Shown piece after piece: positions 2,969 through 54,898 of a stretch of 64,000 nucleotides of DNA. Made by a program: the position numbers and the translations under genes. The DNA lies in sequence record NZ_CP120537.1; one strand, 5' to 3'. This DNA is from a plasmid. Within the stretch, counting starts at the first letter, position 1. Every line of letters begins with the position of its first letter. The notes beneath the pieces are model-generated. The model was not told the origin of the DNA, made no database searches, and saw only the letters and a program-made list of their open reading frames with translations.

Positions 2969-3027
2969 AGTAGATGTGAATTATAAATTCACATGTTTGT
3001 TTTTTAAAATGGAGTAAAGTATACTTA

Positions 3028-3047
3028 TACTGTGTATTTATACAGTA
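3028..3047. promoter_or_regulatory. LexA (SOS) box TACTGTGTATTTATACAGTA.
   Basis: Matches CTGT-N8-ACAG, ~10 bp upstream of the umuD-like start. Confidence 0.7.
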
Positions 3048-3057
3048 TTGGTGCCCT

Positions 3058-3441
3058 ATGCAAATTCCTATTTTCGAGAGTCTAGTTGCCTGTGGTTTTC
3101 CCAGTCCCGCTCAAGACTACGTCGAACGTCGTTTATCGCTCGATGCTGAACTTATTCGCTATCCTGAAAGCACCTATTTTCTTCGTGCTTCAGGGGATTC
3201 GATGAAGGATGCGGGGATTTTTGACGGTGACTTATTAGTCGTTGAAAGTCACCTTACTGCCAGTCATGGGGAAATTGTAGTCGCCGAATACAATGGTGAA
3301 TTCACCTGTAAGTACCTGCAAATCACACCGACTAAAGCGCTTATTCCCGCTAACAGCCAATTTCCCTCTATCCCCATCAATGACGATACGGACGTGCAAA
3401 TTTTCGGTGTCGTTCGTTATGCCGTGCATACCTGTCGGTGA
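3058..3441 (+). CDS. umuD: UmuD/RumA/MucA-family SOS mutagenesis protein (LexA-like S24 peptidase).
   Basis: Has the '[11 protein letters not shown]' Ser-Lys dyad region; 127 aa; LexA box upstream; immediately followed by umuC. Confidence 0.85.
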
Positions 3442-3446
3442 AAGAT

Positions 3447-3672
3447 ATGTTTGCGCTCATCGATGTTAATTCCATGTACACCGCCTGTGAATCTGTCTTT
3501 AGGCCTGATTTAAAAGGAAAGCCAATTATTTGCCTTTCGAATAACGATGGGTGCGTCATTGCGCGTTCAGCTGAAGCGAAACCTTATATCCGCATGGGAG
3601 CGCCTTATTTTGAAATCAAACAGATAATCAAACAAAAGCAAGTAGTTGTATTTTCTTCAAATTATCCACTTA
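3447..3672 (+). pseudogene. umuC: 5' fragment of a umuC/rumB-like Y-family polymerase gene, truncated by an insertion.
   Basis: '[45 protein letters not shown]...FSSNYPL' matches the UmuC N-terminus, then diverges after ~3672 and stops. Confidence 0.8.
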
Positions 3673-4223
3673 CAGTTGGGAAATACTTTAGACATCACAT
3701 GTTGTAATGTTTCAGGTTGTATAAATTAGACGTCGAGATGAGGGGCGGTTACAATTTTTACTATTGGTTAAGAAATATCTTGAAAAAGTAGATGTATGAA
3801 CGCGTAACCCCCTGGGGGAAGGCTTAGCAGTGTGAATAACGGATGATTTAGGTGTTAATGTGATTGAACAAAATAGGTCGTTTCCAGATGACTTCGGCTT
3901 TGACTATTGTCTTATGTGGATTAGTACGGAGAAATATCCCTCATTTATAAGTAGGCCACACCCTGACAGTGGCGAGGTCATCCTAGTCTGGACTCAACCT
4001 GTCAAATTCAAATCACGATGCAATTAGGTCCGACAGGTTGCTCTAACTCACCTCTGCCCCTAAGTGTGTTGTGAGCGTTTAAATACATTTCACCAAAGCA
4101 CCATTTGACTTACTTTTTGTAATACCAGTAATTTGTCTACACAAACGGGTGACTTAACTTTCAGAATTTAAGACACAAGATGTTGTTCTTGGTATCATAA
4201 AAAAAATAAGAAAAAGGACTAAA

Positions 4224-5210
4224 TTGATGACTCAAATTAATAAAATGGCATTCAGCATAGGTAATGATGATATTGATTTATACCTTACGGCAATGAAGGC
4301 TAGTGAAATTTTGCAAGTTGCCACAGTTTCTCGAGTAGATGAGGATGCACAAAAGGGGTATCAGCGTCATTTGTCAGAACCACGAGCTAAGCTGATCGCG
4401 GAATATTTAGATTCAGGGAATCTAATCCCAGGGGCCGTAATTCTGAGTGCTCAAGAAAACTCAGTTATATCATTCAGTAATTCTGAATTATCGATGGAAC
4501 TGATTCCTAACTCTTTATTCGTTATTGATGGTCAGCATCGATTATATGGCGCTCATTTGGCAGAGCAAGATATTGAACTACCCGTGTGTATTTTTAAAGG
4601 TTTAGAACACACTAACGAAGTTCAATACTTTATAGATATAAACTCTAACCAGAAAGGCGTGCCTAAAACACTTCGTCTTGAGTTGTTAAAGTTTTTGGCT
4701 GAAGAGGACTCGCTCGATGCTGTTAGAGCCCGATTATTCGATGAGCTTGGAAATGAGCCTGATTCTCCCCTTTACGGAAAACTCAGTGCAACCTCTAGTT
4801 CTAGAGGTAAAATCTCGCATGTTCCATTTCAAGCAGCCTTAGACCCTATATTGAAAGTTCATCCATTATCTAGCTTGGCTTACGATGATAAAAAACGTCT
4901 ATTATCAAACTATACCTCCGCTGTACAAGGTGTTCTTGAAAGCACATTAGGGAGCAGCGAAAAGCTAACTACAGCAGCATATTTTGAAGCTGTATTTAGC
5001 ATCTTTGGACAAGTTTGCGGCCTTTCAATGATGTATTCAAAAAGCTACTCTGCCTCCGCACTAAAGGAAGTCTTAGAAGGTTTAAAACCATTCAACTTTG
5101 CTATTCATACAGGCACAAACCGTGATGCTATCAAGAAAATGAGTGATGAAATGCAAGAGCTAATTGAAATTCATAGCCACAAACTTGGCTCGGTTCAAGA
5201 TTTGTTTTAA
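4224..5210 (+). CDS. DGQHR-domain protein (DndB-like, ParB/Srx-fold), 328 aa.
   Basis: Motifs 'AQKGYQRHL' and 'VIDGQHRLYGAHLAE'; TTG start with an RBS. Confidence 0.75.
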   Translation: MMTQINKMAFSIGNDDIDLYLTAMKASEILQVATVSRVDEDAQKGYQRHLSEPRAKLIAEYLDSGNLIPGAVILSAQENSVISFSNSELSMELIPNSLFVIDGQHRLYGAHLAEQDIELPVCIFKGLEHTNEVQYFIDINSNQKGVPKTLRLELLKFLAEEDSLDAVRARLFDELGNEPDSPLYGKLSATSSSRGKISHVPFQAALDPILKVHPLSSLAYDDKKRLLSNYTSAVQGVLESTLGSSEKLTTAAYFEAVFSIFGQVCGLSMMYSKSYSASALKEVLEGLKPFNFAIHTGTNRDAIKKMSDEMQELIEIHSHKLGSVQDLF

Positions 5211-5212
5211 TC

Positions 5213-6097
5213 ATGATCAGTTCTGAAATATCAAAGGAAGTATTAGGCAGGCTTACTTCACTGGGATTCCAAAGAAGTGATAAGCCATCAAGTTATTCGA
5301 TGGCTAATAGCTTCAAAAAAGCCCTAGTTAGCTCTATTGTCGATATAGATGTTCAAGTGATCAACTCAAGCCGCCTTGAGGTTACCATGCCGAAGAGTGA
5401 CTATCTAAATGCAATTCTAACGGACTTTCACTTTGGAAAAGTTCGTGTAGAAAACCAAATTAAACACTTAACTGAACAGGTTAATGGTGATCTACAAGCT
5501 GCATGGTGTGTTGTTACAACTTATTATGCTTGCTACTTCATGTGCAATGAGATTTCAAGGATTGCAGGAAAATTCATAACCAACCTGACAGAAGAAGATC
5601 AAACCCGATTATTAAGTGCAGCTCAAGCAGGTACATCATCGATGTTTAACATTGATGGCCCAAGTAGCTTTGCTGTAATGGCTTCTCAAGGTAATAATTT
5701 TAATGAAATTAAACTAGATATCATTAAAACGGGAGCTAGACCTCATCAAGTCGCTTGGACAAATGTAAGTAGCCTAATCAATCCTATAAAAGTATCGGAT
5801 AAACACAATACAGCATGTCAACTGCTAAAGGATATTGTATCTTCATCTAATGACAGGTGGGCTTTACCTAGCGCAATTAGAAATGAGTGGAACTACAGTG
5901 CACCTAGTCTTTATGGAGATTCTGGTACTGATATTGGAAAGAATTTTTTATCCCTTATGAAGCAAGGGTCTTCAGTTAAGTGGGCTTCAAAAATAGGTAT
6001 TCAACCCCATGAAAATAACCGTGTTGCTGCGTTAGCATATGTATATGATTGCTTAAGTGGTGCGTATCAGTTGATCGATGGGCGCTTAAACAGTTGA
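5213..6097 (+). CDS. Hypothetical protein, 294 aa, partner of the DGQHR protein; no recognisable domain.
   Basis: Starts 3 nt after the DGQHR gene stop; the two are co-inserted. Confidence 0.7.
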   Translation: MISSEISKEVLGRLTSLGFQRSDKPSSYSMANSFKKALVSSIVDIDVQVINSSRLEVTMPKSDYLNAILTDFHFGKVRVENQIKHLTEQVNGDLQAAWCVVTTYYACYFMCNEISRIAGKFITNLTEEDQTRLLSAAQAGTSSMFNIDGPSSFAVMASQGNNFNEIKLDIIKTGARPHQVAWTNVSSLINPIKVSDKHNTACQLLKDIVSSSNDRWALPSAIRNEWNYSAPSLYGDSGTDIGKNFLSLMKQGSSVKWASKIGIQPHENNRVAALAYVYDCLSGAYQLIDGRLNS

Positions 6098-6501
6098 AGC
6101 AAACCAATATTGGCCATTGAGCGGTTCAGTAGTTTTGAATACCCTATCAGTGAGCACCATCATCAAAGCGAGTGAAATTTCCATACTTTATCTAATTCAT
6201 GTTTTTCTAAATTAGCTAAAATGCAACTCAGAAATGTCCAGAAGTGAGTTGTGTGGTGTCGAGTGGAGATTGTACGATTAAGCCCCTAAGTAATTAGTCC
6301 GTCAGTCTCCCTCGGTAATCAAATTAGTACATCTTAGCGATCAAATTGGTAAAAAATTAGACATGTAGATGAATGCCCACCTTAAAAAATAGACAGCGGG
6401 TTGGGCAGGGGGATTTTTCTGGTGTTAGACGCCAGCAACCCATGCGGCAGAATGGTTGCTCACTTACTCGCCTATTTTTAGCGGGAATTCTTAGCCAACT
6501 G

Positions 6502-7554
6502 TACCCGCTTTATGCCGATTTTAGTAACCGGTTTATGGCGGTAGTCGCTCAAATTGTGCCTCAAATTGAGGTTTACAGTATTGACGAATGTTTTTGTAAC
6601 CTGACAGGCATGGATACGTTGTATTCCTGGCATGAGCTTGGCCATAAATTAAAAGAGGATGTATTCCGGTGTGCTCACTTGCCTGTAGGAGTGGGGATTT
6701 CCAGTACCAAAACGCTAGCTAAACTCGCAAATCACGCCGCCAAAACATGGAAAAAAACAGGTGGAGTTGTCGATTTAAGTGCGCCCAGTCGTCAGAAAAA
6801 ACTCATGGCACTCGTGCCAGTAGGGGATGTTTGGGGAATTGGCCGTAAACTGGCAAAACGCTTAAATCAAAGTGGGATAGAAACTGCCTTGGATTTAAGT
6901 CGGCTGCCAACGTCCCAGGCGCGTAGACTGTATTCCGTCGTTTTAGAGCGAACGGTACGAGAGTTGAACGGGGAGTCCTGTCTTCAGCTGGAAGAAATCG
7001 CACCCGCCAAGCAACAAATTATTTGCTCTCGTTCGTTTGGCCATAAAGTCATGGACTACGAGTTAGTTCGCCAATCAGTGTGCGCATTTGCCGAACGTGC
7101 AGCAGAAAAACTACGTGAAGAAAAACAGTATTGTCGGTTAGTCACATTGTGGGTACAGAGTAGCCACTTTTCCCATCATGACCCGTACTATTATCGACAA
7201 GAAACCCAAGCCTTGGTTTATCCTACCCAAGATACGCGCGAGATTATTCAGGCGGCTGTCGCTTTGTTTGACCGACTTTGGCTTCCGAATGTGAAATACA
7301 GTAAAAGTGGGATATTGCTCAGTGAGTTTACCCCTTCAGGGCAAGTGCAACTGAATTTGTTTGAAAGTGGCCATAGTTTTCGTAAAAGTGGTGAGTTAAT
7401 GCGGACAATTGACCGGATTAATCGAGGAAAAGGCGCTATCTGGTTTGCAGGCCAGGGAATACAATCGCAATCCGCTTTATGGAAAATGAAGCAGCAATTT
7501 CTATCACCCCGCTGGACAACTCAATTGTCGGATATTCCCATCGTAAAATGCTAA
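6502..7554 (+). pseudogene. umuC: 3' portion of the umuC/rumB-like gene, downstream of the insertion.
   Basis: '...YADFSNRFMAVVAQIVPQIEVYSIDECFCNLTG...TKTLAKLANHAAK...' is collinear with the rest of UmuC. The ORF-track N-terminus (6373-6501) is insertion sequence read in frame. Confidence 0.8.
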
Positions 7555-7876
7555 TCATCAAGTGATGCTTTTTTAAACAGCTCTGATATTCATTCATTAA
7601 TCAAACCATTATCCTTGTTATTAACAGGGCTATTTCAAGTTATCCACTGATTTTGTGGATACGCCCATTTTGAGTTTTGGGGCAACGGCTTTATTTTGGC
7701 GTTGAGCCAGTATTAAGCCGAACGCCGGATTGACCCCATTTACACACAGTTGGCGCAGGTTCCCCGTACACTCTCGTTCTCGCGCCTGTTTGGGGCGCGC
7801 TCACTGGCTCGCCAAATGTGGAAAATGGGGACAACCGGCTTGAAAGGTCAACCGCTGCGCCTTTTACCGTTTTCAA

Positions 7877-8287
7877 CGTGGCGCAAAGGGCAGGGGTGCA
7901 GCTCCCTGCGGGACCGCCCCTGGTTCACTGCTTAGCTGCGCTAAGCGTTAATGGCGACTTGCCGTTCGCTTCTCTCGCTGCAAGTCGGGTGCTGCCATTT
8001 TCATCACCTGTGTGATTAATCTTTCATCGAGCCCCTCCGCTTGGCCTAAAACATAGCCTCATCTCGTCATACAGCAAGCGTAAAGTGCACTCCACCAAAA
8101 TTCTTGTCGCTGCGCTTTCCAACAATTTTGTCTCCGCCCTTGCTTCCTTCCTCGTCTCGGCTATGTACGGCCTTTGCAGCGGAGGAACTCGACGAAAGAA
8201 ATCATTAATACAAAGGAGGATTAAAAAATGTCATCACATCAAAACCTTGCAGCTCCAGAATCTAACGAAAGAAGGGTTAAAACCCCA
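7877..8287 (+). repeat. Copy A of a ~400-bp direct repeat with an internal palindrome GCAGCTCCC-TGC-GGGAGCTGC. Frpo/ssi-like single-strand promoter candidate.
   Basis: ~85-90% identical to 14547-14946; both sit immediately upstream of leading-region genes and extend into their first codons. Confidence 0.6.
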
Positions 8288-8518
8288 CTGACGCATGAGC
8301 AGAAAGCGGATTTATTGCATTACATTGCGCCATTAACACGGTTATTGGAGTTATTCGAGGGGGGTATTTCACCGGAGTTATACGACGAAGAAATCACGCT
8401 GCACAGTGATGCGTTCGATTCCAACAGTATTTTTATGAAAGACGGCTATCCGATTGGCTTTAGTGACAATTTAAACAACATGTTCTATCTGCGTCCTGAA
8501 CTGATTCAGGCTTCTTAG
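8228..8518 (+). CDS. Hypothetical leading-region protein, 96 aa.
   Basis: ORF immediately after repeat copy A; N-terminus 'M..QNLAA.ESNER' is shared with the ardB-like gene because of the repeat. Confidence 0.5.
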   Translation: MSSHQNLAAPESNERRVKTPLTHEQKADLLHYIAPLTRLLELFEGGISPELYDEEITLHSDAFDSNSIFMKDGYPIGFSDNLNNMFYLRPELIQAS

Positions 8519-8582
8519 GTACTAAGGGAGTTCATGAGCCTCCCTTAGCAAAGACACATTAAAAACAATAGAGGTATCAATT

Positions 8583-10583
8583 ATGTCTACATTAGAAACT
8601 ATCATTAACCCGAAACAACGTAAAGCGAAAAAAGGCACAAAATCCGCACAAGCCGACGCAATTTATCAGGCGTTGGACAGCATGGAAGCGCATGTATTGC
8701 CGTTATCGGTATTGGTACAGAGTGAACTCAATGTCCGTAAACGCCCAGTCGATGAAAAAGCCTTGTCAGAACTGGCAGACAGTATTCAAGCGGTCGGGGT
8801 GTTACAAAACTTGGTGGTTTACCCGATGGACAATGACGTCTACGGGGTTGCAGCGGGTCAACGTCGTTTACTGGCGTTACAACAATTGGTGACAAAAGGG
8901 CATTTAGCGTCGAGTTTCCCTGTGCCTGTCAAAGTGGTTTCAGAGTCCGATGCGCTGATTATTTCCCTGACGGAGAACAGCCAACGTGAAGCCATGCATC
9001 CAGCCGACCAACTTCATGCGTTTATCGAGCTACAAAAAACAGGAAAAAATGCGTCTGAAATCGGTGACTTATTAGGGTTTAGCACTCACCACGTGAAAAA
9101 ATGTCTGCGTTTAGCAAACATGGCGCCCGAGCTATTAGCCGAATTGGATGCGGACAATATCACCCTAGACCAGCTGCAAGCGTTAGCCGGAACCCCTGAC
9201 CATGACCGCCAAGTCATGGTGTGGAACAATGCAATAGGTTGGAAAAAAGAGCCACGTTACTTACGAGAAGCGGTCGAAGAAACCAAAACCCCTGTCGAAA
9301 ATAATCGATTGGTGAAGTTTGTTGGGTTGGATGCCTACGAGCAAGCAGGGGGAACCCTTGAAATTGACCTCTTTACCGAAGCCGGATTTATTGAAAATGC
9401 CCCATTATTAGAAAAATTAGCACTCGATAAACTCACTGTCTGTGCGGAACTGTTAGCGGATATTGAGGGTTGGCAGTTCGGTATTGCACGTTTAGAGCGT
9501 CCGAGTTTTTACGGTAATGACGGGGAAACCTTGTCTATTAGTCATGCACCCGAGGCGGTCATTTCCCCTGAATTTGCGGATTTACTGGCTGAATTGCGTG
9601 CTCGTGAAACAGATTTACGTCAGCAATCATGGGAAACGAATGATGAAAATGAACAAGCTGACCTTTGCCAAGCCGTGGCAGACTGCGAAAAGCAAATCGA
9701 AGACATTAAAGATCGTACCAAAAATCAGGCGTGGACAGCCGATGGAAAAGCAACAAAAGGCGTAGTGGTCTACCTTGACCGTGATGGAGAACCCTGTGTC
9801 ATCCGTGGCGTCATTGACTTAGCACAGCAAGAGTCACAGTGCAGTGAAGTGGAAAGCGAAACTGAAAGTGTGAGTGAGCAATCAACGACTCTAGTTGAGA
9901 CGGTTTCTACCTACAGCGCAGCGTTGTGCAAAAGTTTGTCCTCAGAGCGCACCTTAGCGGTTCAAGCGGCATTAACACAGCACCCGAACGTGGCACTGGC
10001 GATTTTGGTTCATGATGCGTGCATTCAGGTGTTTGGTTCAGGGTATGCCAAAACCGCGTTTAACATTAAGTTTTCATGTACTCAGGAGGAGTTACTCAAA
10101 AATGCCCCGACCGCCCAAGACAGCGAAGCATTGCAATTAATCAATACGCAATTTGAGTCATGGTCAGCCCGTTTCCCCGAAGGGTGGCAATCCGATTTTT
10201 CATGGTTGTTGTCATGGGAGCAAGCGGATTTAGTCGCATTACTGGCATTTTGTTCCGCGCAAACCCTAAGTGAAGTGAACCATCATGCTCCGCACGATAA
10301 CACGTTAGCTAAAGCCTTGCGTCCAATTGAACAGGTGATTGCTTTTGATTTTCGCCAGTGGTGGCAGCCAACCAAAGCCAACTTCTTTGGGCGTATAAGT
10401 AAAGACCAAATCAGCGATTGTTTAGCCGAGGCTGGCGCATCAGATAAAGCCCTTGAAGCCGTCAAAATGAAAAAAGGGGATGCCGCTGAGTTAGCTGAAA
10501 ATACCCTTAAAGAGTCGCATTGGTTGCCGAGCTGTTTTCTCGATGCAAACGCTGACTCTCACCACACCGATAACGCGCAATAA
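8583..10583 (+). CDS. Large ParB-like nuclease-domain protein, 666 aa.
   Basis: N-terminal '...VYGVAAGQRRLLALQQL...' ParB/Srx motif; this size class is typical of conjugative-plasmid leading regions. Confidence 0.7.
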   Translation: MSTLETIINPKQRKAKKGTKSAQADAIYQALDSMEAHVLPLSVLVQSELNVRKRPVDEKALSELADSIQAVGVLQNLVVYPMDNDVYGVAAGQRRLLALQQLVTKGHLASSFPVPVKVVSESDALIISLTENSQREAMHPADQLHAFIELQKTGKNASEIGDLLGFSTHHVKKCLRLANMAPELLAELDADNITLDQLQALAGTPDHDRQVMVWNNAIGWKKEPRYLREAVEETKTPVENNRLVKFVGLDAYEQAGGTLEIDLFTEAGFIENAPLLEKLALDKLTVCAELLADIEGWQFGIARLERPSFYGNDGETLSISHAPEAVISPEFADLLAELRARETDLRQQSWETNDENEQADLCQAVADCEKQIEDIKDRTKNQAWTADGKATKGVVVYLDRDGEPCVIRGVIDLAQQESQCSEVESETESVSEQSTTLVETVSTYSAALCKSLSSERTLAVQAALTQHPNVALAILVHDACIQVFGSGYAKTAFNIKFSCTQEELLKNAPTAQDSEALQLINTQFESWSARFPEGWQSDFSWLLSWEQADLVALLAFCSAQTLSEVNHHAPHDNTLAKALRPIEQVIAFDFRQWWQPTKANFFGRISKDQISDCLAEAGASDKALEAVKMKKGDAAELAENTLKESHWLPSCFLDANADSHHTDNAQ

Positions 10584-10624
10584 TCAACATGGAGACACTG
10601 CCCGAAAGGGCAGTGTGAATAATC

Positions 10625-11347
10625 ATGACAACTATTCCAAACCATTTAGCCCTTGTGCCTTTTAATGACCGTCAATATGCCGCTGCAAAAGCCATCCTTT
10701 TTGTCGAAGATAAAATGCAAAAAGGGCAATACCAAAAACGATTTCCCTATGCGAGCGCGTTAATTCGCATTTTTACGGGGAATAAAGGGTCAATAACCGC
10801 AAAAGATTTGCACTATACATTGGTGTTATCTTTCGATGATAAACGTGAAATGCCGTCAAAAAATCGCTATCTTGCCGCCCTTGATACGTTTATTCAGTCT
10901 CGTGGTTATATTTGTCCGTTGCCGTTATGTGATCATCATGTGCGAGATTTTTTTCCTGAGCTGGATTACCGCGACCGTGAACGGCAGGGGCGTAAAATTC
11001 AGTCTCAAGTCCAAGTTGTGAGCCGTGCCCGACAAAAAGCCCAAATAAAAGCGCAGCAACAGTATCAAAATCGATTAGCTCAAGCTGAAATTGAGTTAGC
11101 CTTTATTACCCCCAGTGAGTTTAAATCGTGGTACAACCGGTTTAATCATGATGGGATTGAAGAGTATGATTTGATTGAATTGCTTGTAAACTGGACGACG
11201 CGATTTAACAATTTAAACTTGCGAAAATACCTTGATTTTGCCCCGTTGTGGTCGGCGCTCTTGGATTTCAATGACGATATCGATACCCGATCATACGGTG
11301 AGCAATTACTGGATAATTATGCCATTCCCAATAAATTAATCGGTTAA
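10625..11347 (+). CDS. Hypothetical leading-region protein, 240 aa.
   Basis: ORF with RBS; no recognised motif. Confidence 0.55.
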   Translation: MTTIPNHLALVPFNDRQYAAAKAILFVEDKMQKGQYQKRFPYASALIRIFTGNKGSITAKDLHYTLVLSFDDKREMPSKNRYLAALDTFIQSRGYICPLPLCDHHVRDFFPELDYRDRERQGRKIQSQVQVVSRARQKAQIKAQQQYQNRLAQAEIELAFITPSEFKSWYNRFNHDGIEEYDLIELLVNWTTRFNNLNLRKYLDFAPLWSALLDFNDDIDTRSYGEQLLDNYAIPNKLIG

Positions 11348-11351
11348 AAGG

Positions 11352-11627
11352 GTGTTGACGATGAATGAATGGAATGTGGTTTTACTCGAAACTGAAGACA
11401 GTTTGGTGCTAATGATGCGCGGTGAGCACACAAAAGAAACGGTCGTTAATTCAGCAATTGCCGCGAATGAAATTTCACAGAGTGACCGCGAAACGTGGTT
11501 AGCCTGTGAAGATATCAACGTGGGCTATTACAAGGCGGTGCCTAGAGAAGGGTATGCCACCTATTATTATCCTGTCAGTCAGGACGTTAAAGGGGCGTTT
11601 TTAGCAACCAGTCTTGTGCTATTTTAA
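11352..11627 (+). CDS. Hypothetical protein, 91 aa.
   Basis: ORF, tightly spaced after the previous gene. Confidence 0.45.
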   Translation: MLTMNEWNVVLLETEDSLVLMMRGEHTKETVVNSAIAANEISQSDRETWLACEDINVGYYKAVPREGYATYYYPVSQDVKGAFLATSLVLF

Positions 11628-14436: not shown

Positions 14437-14546
14437 TTCACGTTATTTCAAGGGGATTTATTCCCCTTTTTTGCGCATCGGCTTAATCCTGGCATCGAGC
14501 CAGGCTCAATCCGACAACGTCAACCCCTGCGCCTTTTTACGCTGAC

Positions 14547-14946
14547 GCGTGGCGCAAAGGACAGGGATGCAAGCTCCCTGCGGGAGCTGCCCCTGATAAA
14601 CCGCTTAACGTTGTTAAGCTCAAAGGACGCCTTGCGGTTCGATTCTCTCGCCGCAAGTCGGGTTGTGTCATTTTCAGCTACTGTGTTGTTAATCTTTCGC
14701 CAAGCCCCTCCGCTCGGGCTTAAACATAGACTCAACTCGTCATCCAGCAAGCGTAAAGTGCACTCCAGCAAAATTCTTGTCGCTGCGCTTTCCAACAATT
14801 TTGCTTCCGCCCTTGCTTCCTTCCTCGTTTCGACTATGTACGGCCTTTGCAGCGAAGGAACTCAACGAAAGAAATCATTAACCCAAAGGAGACACTAAAA
14901 TGACTCAACAACAAAACCTTGCAGCTCAAGAATCTAACGAAAGAAA
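14547..14946 (+). repeat. Copy B of the ~400-bp Frpo/ssi-like direct repeat.
   Basis: Aligned by eye to 7877-8287; internal palindrome conserved. Confidence 0.6.
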
Positions 14947-51749: not shown

Positions 51750-53480
51750 ATGTCAGTAATAAGAGCAATAACAATACAGAATTTTAGAAGCATAAAAGAG
51801 TTTAAGTGGCATCCAAAACCTGGGCTTAACTGTATAATTGGCCCAGGTGACACGGGAAAATCCACAATTCTAGATGCTATAGACTTAGCGCTCGGAGCGA
51901 GACGAAGTTATAATTTTACTGATGCTGATTTTCATGGTCTAAATACTCAAGAGCCTATCGTGATAACAGTCACTATCGGTTGCCTAGATGGTGAGCTCAT
52001 GAATATTGATAAATACGGCTTTTTTCTTCGTGGTTTTAACCACACATCACTTGAAATACACGATGAACCACAACCGGGTGATGAAACAGTTCTTACCATT
52101 AAACTAATAGTTGATCAGGATTTATACCCAGACTGGCGCTTGTACTCAGAAAGAGCAGAAAGTGAAGGTTTAGAGAAGCGTCTGCAATGGAAGCATAAAG
52201 AGTTACTAAGCCCAGCTAGACTTGGAACTACTACATATCAACACCTCGCTTGGGGTAACAGCTCTATCCTCAATAAACTCTCAGAAGATACCCTCGATGT
52301 TTCAGCAACACTTGCAGAATTAGGAAGACAAACTAGACAACACTTCGCAGATCAGCAAGTTGATGGTGTTAATGATGTTCTATTAAAAGTACAAAAAATC
52401 GCAAATGGATTGGGAGTACCAGTCGGTAAACTTAAAGCGCTATTAGATGTCAATGGAGTATCCCTTTCAAACGGCGCTATAAGCCTTCACAATGATGACA
52501 ATACCCCTTTACGTCAACTAGGCACTGGCTCATCTAGATTGCTTATTAGTGGGTTACAAAAGGCTGCAAGCAAATCAAACATTATTTTAGTTGATGAAGC
52601 AGAATATGGGCTAGAACCATATAGAATAACTCGTTTGCTAAATGAGTTAGGTTCCAAAGATACACAGCCAACTCAGCAGGTGTTCATTACTACACATTCA
52701 CCATATGTTCTCCGAGAGCTACAGGCTCAACAATTAAATGTATTAAGAAAAGTATCTTTAGCTACTCAAGTTTTTGGTAATACCCAAGAATCTCATAAAC
52801 TTCATAGCCTTGAAGGAAACGATGAGCAACAATCGACTTTGCGTGCTTGCGCTGAATCATTCTTCAGTAAAGCTGTAATCGTTTGTGAAGGTAAAACAGA
52901 AATTGGATATGTTCGAGGAATTGATCTTCACAATCAAAGCACGAATTACCGTAGTATTAACGCATGTGGTGTCCATTGTGCCGATGGCGGTGGAGATAGC
53001 ATGTTCGTAAGAGCGGAAATTTTTGCTCAATTAGGTTATCCCACCGCCATATTTAAAGACTCAGACAAAGCTCAGGAACATGTAGGACCTTCTCAACTGG
53101 CTGCGAGTAAAGGCATCGCTATCTATGAGTGGGGTAATAATTCTGCAACTGAAGATGTGCTTTTTATGGCTTGTCCGGCTCAGGTGATTCCTCAATTACT
53201 GGCTATTGCAATTCAGCGAAAAGGCCAAGCAGCAATCGAAGACCATATTATTGCTCACTCACAAAACCAAATAACGCTTGATGTTTGTCTAAATCACTTT
53301 CAAGAGAGTTATCGAGCGATTTTAGCCAAAGCTGCAAAAAAAAAGTCATGGTTCAAAGATATCGAACCAGCAGAAACGTTTGCACGGAATGTGATTGCTC
53401 CCAATTATGCTCAATTTTCAGAAGCTCTCACAACTACGACTAACCAACTGTTTCGATGGGCTCTAGAGCAAGGTGATTGA
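51750..53480 (+). CDS. gajA: GajA (Gabija OLD-family ATPase + TOPRIM nuclease).
   Basis: N-terminal 'IQNFRSIKEF...IIGPGDTGKSTILDAI', ABC signature 'LGTGSSRLL', Walker B 'IILVDEAE', 'TTHSP', TOPRIM 'VIVCEGKTE'; 576 aa. Confidence 0.85.
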   Translation: MSVIRAITIQNFRSIKEFKWHPKPGLNCIIGPGDTGKSTILDAIDLALGARRSYNFTDADFHGLNTQEPIVITVTIGCLDGELMNIDKYGFFLRGFNHTSLEIHDEPQPGDETVLTIKLIVDQDLYPDWRLYSERAESEGLEKRLQWKHKELLSPARLGTTTYQHLAWGNSSILNKLSEDTLDVSATLAELGRQTRQHFADQQVDGVNDVLLKVQKIANGLGVPVGKLKALLDVNGVSLSNGAISLHNDDNTPLRQLGTGSSRLLISGLQKAASKSNIILVDEAEYGLEPYRITRLLNELGSKDTQPTQQVFITTHSPYVLRELQAQQLNVLRKVSLATQVFGNTQESHKLHSLEGNDEQQSTLRACAESFFSKAVIVCEGKTEIGYVRGIDLHNQSTNYRSINACGVHCADGGGDSMFVRAEIFAQLGYPTAIFKDSDKAQEHVGPSQLAASKGIAIYEWGNNSATEDVLFMACPAQVIPQLLAIAIQRKGQAAIEDHIIAHSQNQITLDVCLNHFQESYRAILAKAAKKKSWFKDIEPAETFARNVIAPNYAQFSEALTTTTNQLFRWALEQGD

Positions 53481-54898
53481 TAATGAGCATAGAAGCAATT
53501 TTCGATAATGATGTTGGCTCTATAGTGGCTCCGGCAGGGTGCGGTAAAACCCAGTTGATCACTGATACTCTGGTGATAAAACCAAACAAGCCATATCTTG
53601 TCTTAACTCATACGACGGCAGGTGTAGCCGCTCTAAAACTAAGGTTGAAAAAATTATCTGTCCCAACAAAGAACTTCTTTGTTACAACAATAGATGGTTG
53701 GGCTTTGAAATTAGCAAAAAACTTTCCTGTTTCATGTCCTATACAAACCTCTCCTGAAAATCCAAAGGCATTCTATCCAGAGTTAAGAAGAAGTGTTCTT
53801 GCGTTACTCCAAAATGGGAACGTAAACGACATTCTAAGAGCATCATATTCACGACTACTTGTTGATGAGTACCAAGACTGTAACTTGGTGCAACATCAGG
53901 TAGTAACAGAGCTATCGTCATTAATTCCGACGACAGTTTTCGGCGATCCGATGCAGTGTATATTTAACTTCGCAGGAAGGATGCCTGACTGGAACACAGA
54001 GGTTCAAGCAAGGTTTCCTCAAATACATGAATTAACAGTACCATGGAGGTGGAATAATGCTGGTTCCCATGGTCTTGGACAGTGGGTACTCGATTGCCGA
54101 AATATATTGATCCAAGGTAATAAAATAGATCTTTCGACATGCCCTGGTTATGTTCACCACAAGCCATTGTCCGGTGTTGCAAGCACTGACTTACAAGCTC
54201 AACAAGCTGCTCAATATGATATTTTTAATAGAGCTCAAAATGAATCTTTGCTCGTAATCGGTGATTCAATAAATGCAAGATCTAGGCATAAATATGCTCA
54301 AAGTAGTAGGAATATTGATGTCGTTGAGCCAGTGCAACTCGACGATGTAGCTAATGCTGCTCGCTCTTTTGATAGTGCGCAAGGCATAGATTTGGTTGAT
54401 GCCATTCTTACCTACTCGGGTGAGATGATGACCAATGTGCAAAGGCCACAGACCCTACAAAGATTACGCACTATTCAAGCAGGGAGAAGTCGAATACCTA
54501 TCACTTCACTGGAGACTGCTCTCCTCAATGTTCTCCAGAATAGCTCTCGCAATAATATTCTGACGGCTTTGCTGCAATTAGAGTCTAAACAAGGAGCTAA
54601 AGTTTATCGCAAGGCTGCATTTTCAGCGCTGAAAGACACTATTTCACTTTCAAGCTCTATGCCTGACCAGACCATATTGGACGCCGCTTCATCAATTCGT
54701 GAGCAACTCAGGCTACATGGCGATCGACGAATATCTCGCCGCGCAATTGGATCGACACTGCTACTGAAAGGGCTAGAGTGTGATCATTCACTAATTCTTA
54801 ACGCTGATAACATGAATGCACAACATCTATACGTTGCTTTATCAAGAGGGGCAAAATCAACAACTGTTTTTTCTCAAAGCAACCTGATTGGCCCATAA
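53477..54898 (+). CDS. gajB: GajB (Gabija UvrD-like helicase).
   Basis: 'VAPAGCGKTQLI' Walker A; 'LLVDEYQD'; 'VFGDPMQCIF'; 'LYVALSRGAKSTTVF'; overlaps the gajA stop. Confidence 0.85.
   Translation: MIMSIEAIFDNDVGSIVAPAGCGKTQLITDTLVIKPNKPYLVLTHTTAGVAALKLRLKKLSVPTKNFFVTTIDGWALKLAKNFPVSCPIQTSPENPKAFYPELRRSVLALLQNGNVNDILRASYSRLLVDEYQDCNLVQHQVVTELSSLIPTTVFGDPMQCIFNFAGRMPDWNTEVQARFPQIHELTVPWRWNNAGSHGLGQWVLDCRNILIQGNKIDLSTCPGYVHHKPLSGVASTDLQAQQAAQYDIFNRAQNESLLVIGDSINARSRHKYAQSSRNIDVVEPVQLDDVANAARSFDSAQGIDLVDAILTYSGEMMTNVQRPQTLQRLRTIQAGRSRIPITSLETALLNVLQNSSRNNILTALLQLESKQGAKVYRKAAFSALKDTISLSSSMPDQTILDAASSIREQLRLHGDRRISRRAIGSTLLLKGLECDHSLILNADNMNAQHLYVALSRGAKSTTVFSQSNLIGP

Follow-up and report, generated by a model that had tools for sequence, protein, structure and literature searches.

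The 64,000-nucleotide stretch of plasmid record NZ_CP120537.1 analysed here on one strand, 5' to 3' (hereafter the window), contains two adjacent plus-strand genes that encode a DGQHR-domain protein (4227..5210) and a partner of 294 amino acids (aa; 5213..6097). The pair can be regarded, with moderate confidence, as a candidate two-protein module of immunity or exclusion against invading DNA, such as phages and plasmids, carried as cargo by mobile elements. An earlier note, made from the letters of this stretch alone, had proposed an undescribed defence-like system at this place; indeed, PADLOC-DB 2.0.0 (2023) neither contains the pair nor holds a system that matches both components, and no description of the pair was found in the literature. 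The DGQHR domain is known, as are SEs (strand-biased circularizing integrative elements), the family to which the carrier of the pair appears to belong; the partner family, its fixed pairing with a clade of DGQHR proteins and their likely role are described neither in PADLOC-DB 2.0 nor in the literature found.

The first gene is read in RefSeq from the ATG at 4227, which gives 327 aa, and the TTG at 4224 gives 328 aa. Its product consists of an N-terminal ParB/Srx fold followed by a C-terminal helical domain that holds no conserved polar residues. A QR pair, the DGQHR pentapeptide and an FxxxN motif are the three signatures of the DGQHR domain, and DGQQR is a predicted NTPase site (PMC4619093). 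All three are present: numbered from ATG 4227, KGYQR occupies residues 43-47, VIDGQHRLYGAHL residues 99-111 and FIDIN, the FxxxN motif, residues 135-139, while Q46-R47, D101-R105 and F135/N139 show no variation across 36 homologues. The DndB-type signature read in the earlier note for the 328-aa protein, KGYQR followed by VIDGQHRLYGAHL, is thus in place together with the third motif, and the protein falls within the ParB/Srx fold. In profile searches, it matches TIGR03187 (DGQHR) with an E-value of 7.1e-33 and 114.5 bits against a cut-off of 58.85, and PF14072 (DndB) with an E-value of 1.8e-10 and 40.9 bits against a cut-off of 29.1, so that the domain assignment is far beyond chance. More specific models fail: dnd-associated DGQHR protein 1 (TIGR04172) scores 77.3 bits against a cut-off of 450 and the DpdB equivalog (NF041060) 69.5 bits against 300. 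DpdB is also the sole PADLOC match (E 7e-21, residues 3-239). The DGQHR clade comprises at least 419 clusters.

The two genes are tightly coupled, as had been claimed, with a gap of 2 nt (TAA-TC-ATG) rather than 3 nt. The pairing recurs far from this plasmid. Indeed, at each of the 16 independent loci examined the DGQHR gene lies immediately 5' of the partner, the gap being -4 to +12 nt, and the DndB-family gene encodes 326-376 aa. These loci come from Massilia, Janthinobacterium, Vibrio parahaemolyticus (two kinds of site), a Vibrionaceae metagenome-assembled genome (MAG), Idiomarina, Dryocola, Enterobacter bugandensis, Pseudomonas aeruginosa, a Burkholderia glumae plasmid, one proteobacterial MAG and five metagenomic or unassigned contigs, in one of which NCBI names the DGQHR protein as that of a Nitrospirae bacterium. 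The pair is thus spread over Gamma- and Betaproteobacteria and metagenomic contigs. Identities of the DGQHR protein and the partner to the window proteins fall together, from 92/84 through 71/51, 64/44, 56/38 and 47/27 to 36/24%; on these sequences, divergence of the two is coupled. Profile comparison confirms the distant partners as true homologues (probability 99.6-100%). In addition, one metagenomic contig has only 4206-6112 of the window in common, at 87% identity, and the two genes therefore move between carriers as a 1.9-kb module. A DEAD-box helicase considered as a third component was set aside, as it adjoins the pair only in two Oxalobacteraceae loci.

The partner had been described as lacking a recognisable motif. 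This holds for sequence searches, which gave no match in Pfam, NCBIfam or PADLOC, permissive E-values included (E <= 1 for PADLOC), and none among PDB sequences; the same searches, together with the database names, revealed no homology to a housekeeping or Dnd-regulatory protein, the finding that the earlier note had named as speaking against its proposal. The predicted fold, by contrast, has a core of HEPN-like helices. The predicted structure (predicted local distance difference test score, pLDDT, 90.3; predicted template modelling score, pTM, 0.88) has two long helices at 61-91 and 96-117, then a beta-rich insertion at 120-173, shorter helices and a long C-terminal helix at 267-293; the N-terminal strands may join the insertion in this model. 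A fold search with the model returned HEPN-like helical bundles and no His-Me finger. A Foldseek search found nothing, for which reason the core is named HEPN-like and not HEPN.

Across 83 members of the partner family, with identities down to 15%, W98, Y104, Y105, H178, W182, R223, N227 and Y228 are invariant, and P219 and N224 nearly so. The polar members of this set (Y104, Y105, H178, R223, N227 and Y228) belong to a protein predicted as a HEPN-like helical bundle with an alpha/beta insertion. In particular, the R-N-x-W-N-Y string would lie on the helix preceding the last long helix, which corresponds, by the order of secondary structures in the model, to the position of the HEPN Rx4-6H motif. 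The pattern of invariant residues argues for a conserved functional site with non-canonical chemistry, and purifying selection is apparently acting on the putative active sites of both proteins, that is on QR/DGQHR/FxxxN and on the partner invariants. A relationship of the partner to uracil-DNA glycosylase (UDG) was rejected. The only PDB profile matches of this kind, to poxvirus UDG (E 0.12-0.22), cover partner residues 124-193 or so (window about 5582-5791) with a local K-x-H-x-x-x-W stretch that spans H178 and W182, and the similarity is treated as chance because the folds differ.

An exhaustive profile search gave 309 representatives of the partner family at E <= 1e-3 and 129 at 1e-10, as compared with just 19 clusters in a word-indexed search. 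Apart from apparent fragments, the listed representatives have 280-350 aa and are matched along most of their length, and wherever a source name was seen it is "hypothetical protein". A near-identical partner occurs in 237 contigs, is named unclassified Alteromonas in NCBI/UniRef and is also present in Tara Oceans data; the identical protein occurs in 74 contigs.

A mechanism can be proposed from these features. The DGQHR protein would work as an NTP- and DNA-binding switch of the ParB/Srx fold, and would thus have the sensing or licensing role that falls to DUF262 in GmrSD, BrxU and SspE. The partner, a diverged HEPN-like bundle with an alpha/beta subdomain, would be the effector, in which H178, R223-N-x-W-N227-Y228 and Y104/Y105 may form a site that cleaves nucleic acid, probably RNA, or binds it. 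Both proteins would be made from one translationally coupled transcript and act as a complex, with NTPase activity in the first subunit and nuclease activity in the second, and once triggered the complex would give protection. The split NTPase-plus-effector arrangement suggested earlier for this pair is compatible with the predicted folds. A bolder form of the immunity reading, put forward tentatively, sees in the pair a widespread and so far unrecognised immune system in which a ParB-like NTP/DNA switch licenses a non-canonical nuclease derived from HEPN (in which an R-N-x-W-N-Y/His site takes the place of Rx4-6H); filamentous phages, SEs and plasmids would spread this system, and it may be tuned against single-stranded DNA or filamentous invaders or against incoming conjugative DNA.

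The surroundings of homologous pairs are in part those of defence and mobile elements. Neighbouring genes include a SMODS cyclase with SLATT_6 (CBASS-like), SinI restriction-modification, a P4-type integrase with a zeta toxin, and DUF4062; the PADLOC families PD-Lambda-5_A, PDC-S28 and PDC-M38A are also found among the neighbours. Filamentous prophages adjoin the pair in P. aeruginosa and V. parahaemolyticus. In particular, in the Pf phage PfAC19 (OR863248, in INPHARED), it corresponds to open reading frames ORF3-ORF2, directly 3' of the repressor gene and co-oriented with it. The sister phages PfAC02b and PfAC08 carry Gabija and IetAS, respectively, in the accessory region on the same side of the repressor, and other phages of the PfAC19 study have a retron, Kiwa/ShosTA or Avs in their accessory genomes (PMC11878078). 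The pair thus sits unannotated at the accessory end of PfAC19 where sister phages have recognised defence systems.

Two further observations concern these prophages. In P. aeruginosa Pf prophages, including PfAC19 (ORF1, 333-1325), a third accessory gene of 330 aa always follows the pair and is annotated in PfAC19 as "secreted effector protein sseI"; since all other lineages lack it, this gene probably represents cargo of its own. In V. parahaemolyticus (about 10.2-11.0 kb), the pair is flanked on one side by a filamentous prophage (Rep_trans, Zot) and on the other by a protein of 234 aa that matches PLDc_2 weakly, and a second filamentous prophage 3' in one strain suggests a dif-type integration hotspot. 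A scan of IMG/VR gave no relatives.

Several points weigh against a role in immunity. The canonical HEPN Rx4-6H motif is missing, as R223-N-E-W-N-Y228 has an invariant Tyr at the place of the expected His in all 83 members, and nuclease activity of the partner is speculative for this reason. In about half of the neighbourhoods the genes are of the housekeeping kind or uninformative, as with lepA-lepB-rnc or sugar transport, and the evidence from context consists of 16 loci evaluated by inspection. For PfAC19, the PADLOC-based table of the published study gives a toxin-antitoxin (TA) system and PfsE only, and no defence system for the pair (PMC11878078). Finally, the cargo of mobile elements can equally be addiction, regulatory or anti-defence genes. 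As regards addiction, the pair could be a TA module that stabilises its carrier, with a HEPN-like toxin and a DGQHR protein that neutralises it or represses the operon, as DndB does for dnd. HEPN toxins with an upstream cognate neutraliser are common, the two genes are tightly coupled, and the pair is found on plasmids and prophages by other TA genes (zeta toxin, RelE/ParE). DndB/DptB has moreover been reported as a transcriptional repressor (PMC8569181, PMC10853773). However, with 327 and 294 aa the two proteins are far larger than typical type II components, the putative antitoxin retains an invariant enzymatic NTP-binding signature, and the catalytic His of HEPN toxins is missing from the partner. 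The pair also persists on a dead SE remnant, described below, and at chromosomal sites, where the benefit of addiction is not obvious. A TA module is thus an unlikely explanation.

The pair could instead serve its mobile element, as a ParB-like regulator or DNA-handling factor with an accessory protein, in the control of lysogeny, copy number or partition or in excluding superinfection by related elements. Its position directly 3' of the Pf repressor and in the same orientation would fit such a role, as would its place beside Vibrio filamentous prophages and an extra ParB_N gene after one distant pair; ParB/Srx proteins are known from partition, from transcriptional silencing (KorB) and from conflict between plasmids (Osa; cited in PMC10853773). 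Nevertheless, the carriers are unrelated and include an SE, a Pf phage, a Vibrio inovirus region, a P4-type integrase island, a Burkholderia plasmid and plain chromosome, which makes a carrier-specific maintenance role unlikely. SEs, in addition, lack autonomous replication and already encode four recombination proteins of their own. Service to the element is, on balance, quite unlikely.

One homologous pair points to DNA modification. It lies at 6001-7859 of the Logan contig SRR10267473, with 45% and 26% identity to the window proteins, inside a phosphorothioation island in which a helicase, an SMC-like ATPase, dnd_assoc_4 and Mrr_cat are 5' and dndE-dndD-dndC-dndB 3' of the pair, so that a link to phosphorothioation is possible in some lineages. 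The absence of dnd and ssp neighbours, claimed for the window locus, holds on the annotation of NZ_CP120543.1, the closest plasmid record, where no dnd, ssp or dpd genes are annotated, and does not extend to this contig. Nor are such genes annotated in PfAC19 or found among the called genes (for dpd, also the family summaries) of the loci other than the SRR10267473 contig, which gives dnd neighbours in one of the 16 loci. One neighbour protein matches both DndA and SspA and has a single Pfam match, Aminotran_5; this cysteine desulfurase is most simply a housekeeping IscS. The pair could accordingly be an accessory of phosphorothioation or 7-deazaguanine systems that reads or regulates a modification made elsewhere in the genome, as DndB, DpdB and SspE do, and its top specific profiles are indeed DpdB and dnd-associated DGQHR protein 1. 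These scores are, however, far under the 300- and 450-bit cut-offs, dnd genes adjoin a single locus, and the partner is unlike any known modification enzyme, which leaves this role very unlikely.

How the pair reached the plasmid can be read from its carrier. An alignment with the intact umuC of NZ_OU659116.1 delimits an insertion of 2,839 bases between 3670 and 6510, at the codons for the conserved SSNYxLY stretch of umuC. As the earlier note had stated, the pair is its only cargo; the insertion itself can now be identified, by its sequence, as a decayed element of the SE family. SEs, a family that includes SE-6283, SE-6945 and SE-AmaTe101 and was defined on plasmid pSEA1, end in imperfect inverted repeats of 13-19 bp, and the 6-bp spacers at their two junctions, the fingerprint and footprint of integration, need not match (PMC10214605). 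The window insertion has 18-nt arms at 3671-3688 and 6486-6503 that are 78% complementary (TACAGTTGG.../...CCAACTGTA), and its left and right spacers are TCCACT and CCCGCT, as compared with TGCGCT and CGCGCT in Proteus mirabilis H110 and CGAGCT on both sides in Alteromonas macleodii pKD02. The differing attL and attR spacers of the window fit SE integration and not target-site duplication.

The relatives with matching arms are larger insertions in umuC/rumB-type genes. The ends of the pKD02 insertion are 99.4% (3669-3983) and 98.5% (6173-6513) identical to the window, those of H110 97.6% (3650-3983) and 98.3% (right arm), and both arms of Vibrio gangliei about 99%; Shewanella aestuarii shares the left arm at 98% and only about 78 nt of the right. 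In pKD02, the left end is followed by genes for a tyrosine recombinase of 469 aa, for proteins of 598 aa and 729 aa (the latter with a weak integrase C-terminus) and for a DUF6262-like protein of 178 aa, and then by mercury/Tn3 cargo. The 598-aa protein, a Tfp homologue, is 33% identical (E 2e-51) to a pSEA1 protein. All four core genes, intA-tfp-intB-srap, are thus present in pKD02. In the window they are gone except for a 41-codon remnant of intA; the copy lacks pKD02 positions 3381-11444 (the intA start at pKD02 3257 corresponds to window 3860), contains no transposase or integrase gene and is a non-autonomous remnant because of this loss. An Alteromonadaceae metagenome-assembled contig is 99.6% identical to window 3984-6521, with srap and the 3' part of intB directly 5' and a umuC fragment 3'. 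As recombination genes precede the same cargo as far as this contig reaches, it probably represents the parent of the window element, and the pair apparently came to the Providencia plasmid from marine Alteromonadaceae by SE integration into umuC.

The same SE ends flank mercury/Tn3 cargo in pKD02 and a sul2-aph(3'')-Ib-aph(6)-Id cluster in H110, and the elements of pKD02, H110 and the window all sit at the SSNYxLY codons of a umuC/rumB-type gene. The location of the pair in umuC is accounted for by this attachment site, and not by the suggestion that insertion into an SOS gene is a typical anti-phage context; this SE lineage carries mercury or sul2-strAB cargo elsewhere. The lineage may be the origin of the rumB resistance insertions of SXT/R391-type elements; no literature linking SEs to umuC was found.

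The order of features on the plus strand agrees with this history. The interrupted umuDC operon starts with an intact umuD (3058..3441), the S24 peptidase subunit of DNA polymerase V (Pol V), which matches Peptidase_S24 (E 1e-28) and is annotated in NZ_CP120543.1. A 5' fragment of umuC of about 76 codons (3438..3664; positions 1-70 of the IMS profile, E 2.6e-11) runs up to the left half of the attachment site and is colinear with umuC of NZ_OU659116.1 to 3671. The attL spacer TCCACT (3665..3670, unstranded) by motif C would derive, under the SE model and by comparison of junctions, from the central 6 bp of the target, which are TCCGCT in a related intact umuC. The SE left arm (3671..3983) begins with motif C (TACAGTTGG...), contains the left inverted repeat and ends with the first 41 codons of intA (3860-3983). 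A 63-nt segment normally found just 3' of srap (3984..4046; 100% identical to pKD02 11445-11507, 27 nt past the srap stop) marks the right edge of the deletion. At 4170-4198, the cargo leader (4047..4226) holds a candidate for a sigma-70-like promoter (AAGACA-17-TATCAT, plus a TG extension), a pattern match from a consensus scan in a region that overall held fewer such sites than shuffled controls. After the two genes, a trailer from the partner stop to the right arm (6098..6172) is not in pKD02 or H110, whose identity begins at 6173, and is contiguous in the Alteromonadaceae contig. The SE right arm (6173..6503), which matches the right ends of the pKD02, V. gangliei and H110 elements at 98-99% identity, closes with motif C' (...CCAACTGTA, 6495-6503); the attR footprint CCCGCT follows (6504..6509, unstranded), as placed by comparing the junctions of the window, pKD02 and H110 under the SE model. 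The 3' part of umuC (6510..7554; IMS, IMS_HHH, IMS_C and DUF4113) is colinear with the intact gene from 6502. The RefSeq umuC coding sequence, 6373-7554, begins at an ATG within the SE right arm, so that its first 45 codons or so are element sequence. With the N-terminus of UmuC (about 78 codons) stranded at 3438-3671, Pol V is presumably inactive on this plasmid.

Other identities for the insertion were tried and rejected. The ends TACAGTTGG...CCAACTGTA are not the TGT...ACA of Tn7-, Tn3- or IS-type transposons, there is no transposase, and the flanking 6-mers differ in both the window and H110. For the non-coding arms of 550 nt and 400 nt, an intron or a structured RNA was dismissed, as Rfam gave one chance-level match (E 0.98) and zero at gathering thresholds. 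Direct repeats AAATTAGAC... in both arms were considered as recombinase sites and set aside once the arms proved to be SE ends.

The segment 3000-7600 has a 100% match in six Providencia plasmids and a partial match in 39 other plasmid records, many of which are annotated with an uninterrupted umuC. NZ_CP120543.1 is an F-type conjugative plasmid about 97.8% identical to the window outside 3000-7600, as over the tra region, with a coordinate offset of 671 bp by 51 kb. The umuDC/SE segment thus varies less than the backbone. On the plasmid, the pair stands in the leading region, near antirestriction and PsiA genes, and carriage by phages, plasmids and integrative elements in general would suit a counter-immunity module directed against host systems. 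Yet most known anti-defence proteins are small and encoded by single genes, the pair is also found in chromosomal islands beside restriction-modification and CBASS-like genes, and the leading-region position follows from the SE attachment site in umuC, so that this role is highly improbable. The leading region also contains a repeat of about 430 bp in two copies with 84.6% identity (7844-8273 and 14516-14945), the first within an unusually G+C-rich stretch (50-53%) 5' of a large ParB-like gene and the second overlapping the start of an antirestriction gene; a role of the repeat as single-strand promoter or ssi-type element is conceivable. Further away, a complete Gabija system lies at 51750-54898 on the plus strand (PADLOC: GajA E 7e-221, GajB E 8e-174), whose genes bear in RefSeq only the names ATP-binding protein and UvrD-helicase domain protein.

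Should the pair prove to be a defence system, it would bring a new effector chemistry, a HEPN-like fold without Rx4-6H, to the class of immune sensors built on ParB/Srx NTPases, and a family of about 300 clusters, whose source names, where seen, carry no functional annotation, would gain a function. Some of the accessory genes that stand unannotated in the Pf phages of clinical P. aeruginosa and in prophage regions of V. parahaemolyticus would also be accounted for, with relevance to phage therapy. Whatever its function, SEs, so far known for resistance genes, also appear to move cargo with a candidate role in immunity between marine Alteromonadaceae and plasmids of clinical Providencia, and the conserved SSNYxLY codons of umuC/rumB can be taken as the attachment site of this SE lineage.

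Both the carrier and the pair can be set against known systems. Like the SEs described previously (PMC10214605), the carrier has ends 98-99% identical to those of intA-tfp-intB-srap elements, an 18-bp imperfect inverted repeat, differing spacers and target-specific insertion; unlike them, it has lost the four core genes and carries the DGQHR pair instead of resistance genes. With DndB/DptB and TIGR04172 the first protein shares its domain family (PF14072, TIGR03187) and the layout of an N-terminal ParB-like and a C-terminal helical domain, but it reaches 77 of the required 450 bits, dndCDE neighbours are missing here and in 15 of the 16 loci, and it is always accompanied by a dedicated partner of 290-350 aa, which Dnd systems do not have. 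DpdB, the ParB-like ATPase of the Dpd 7-deazaguanine system, is its top PADLOC match (E 7e-21), whereas the score stays at 69.5 against 300 bits and dpdA, dpdC and other dpd genes are not nearby. The partner differs from HEPN effectors such as AbiV, the AbiA C-terminal domain, HepT and Csm6 in that Rx4-6H is replaced by an invariant R-N-x-W-N-Y, in its extra N-terminal and inserted alpha/beta subdomain, in a separate invariant His178, and in finding no support from sequence profiles or Foldseek. As for GmrSD, BrxU and SspE, the motif is DGQHR here and not DGQQR, there is no DUF262 Pfam match, and Pfam, PADLOC and the fold search give no HNH domain (DUF1524) in the partner, so that its proposal as the HNH half of a split GmrSD is unsupported. 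The likeness lies in a ParB/Srx-fold domain with QR, DGQ(H/Q)R and FxxxN joined to a second, possibly effector module, in a total of about 620 aa that is close to GmrSD/BrxU-type enzymes, as the earlier note had remarked, and in carriage within defence and mobile-element contexts. Fusions of ParB-like domains with nuclease or HEPN domains have also been described in defence loci (PMC3632139), and a two-protein immunity module would be analogous both to these fusions and to GmrSD, BrxU and SspE.

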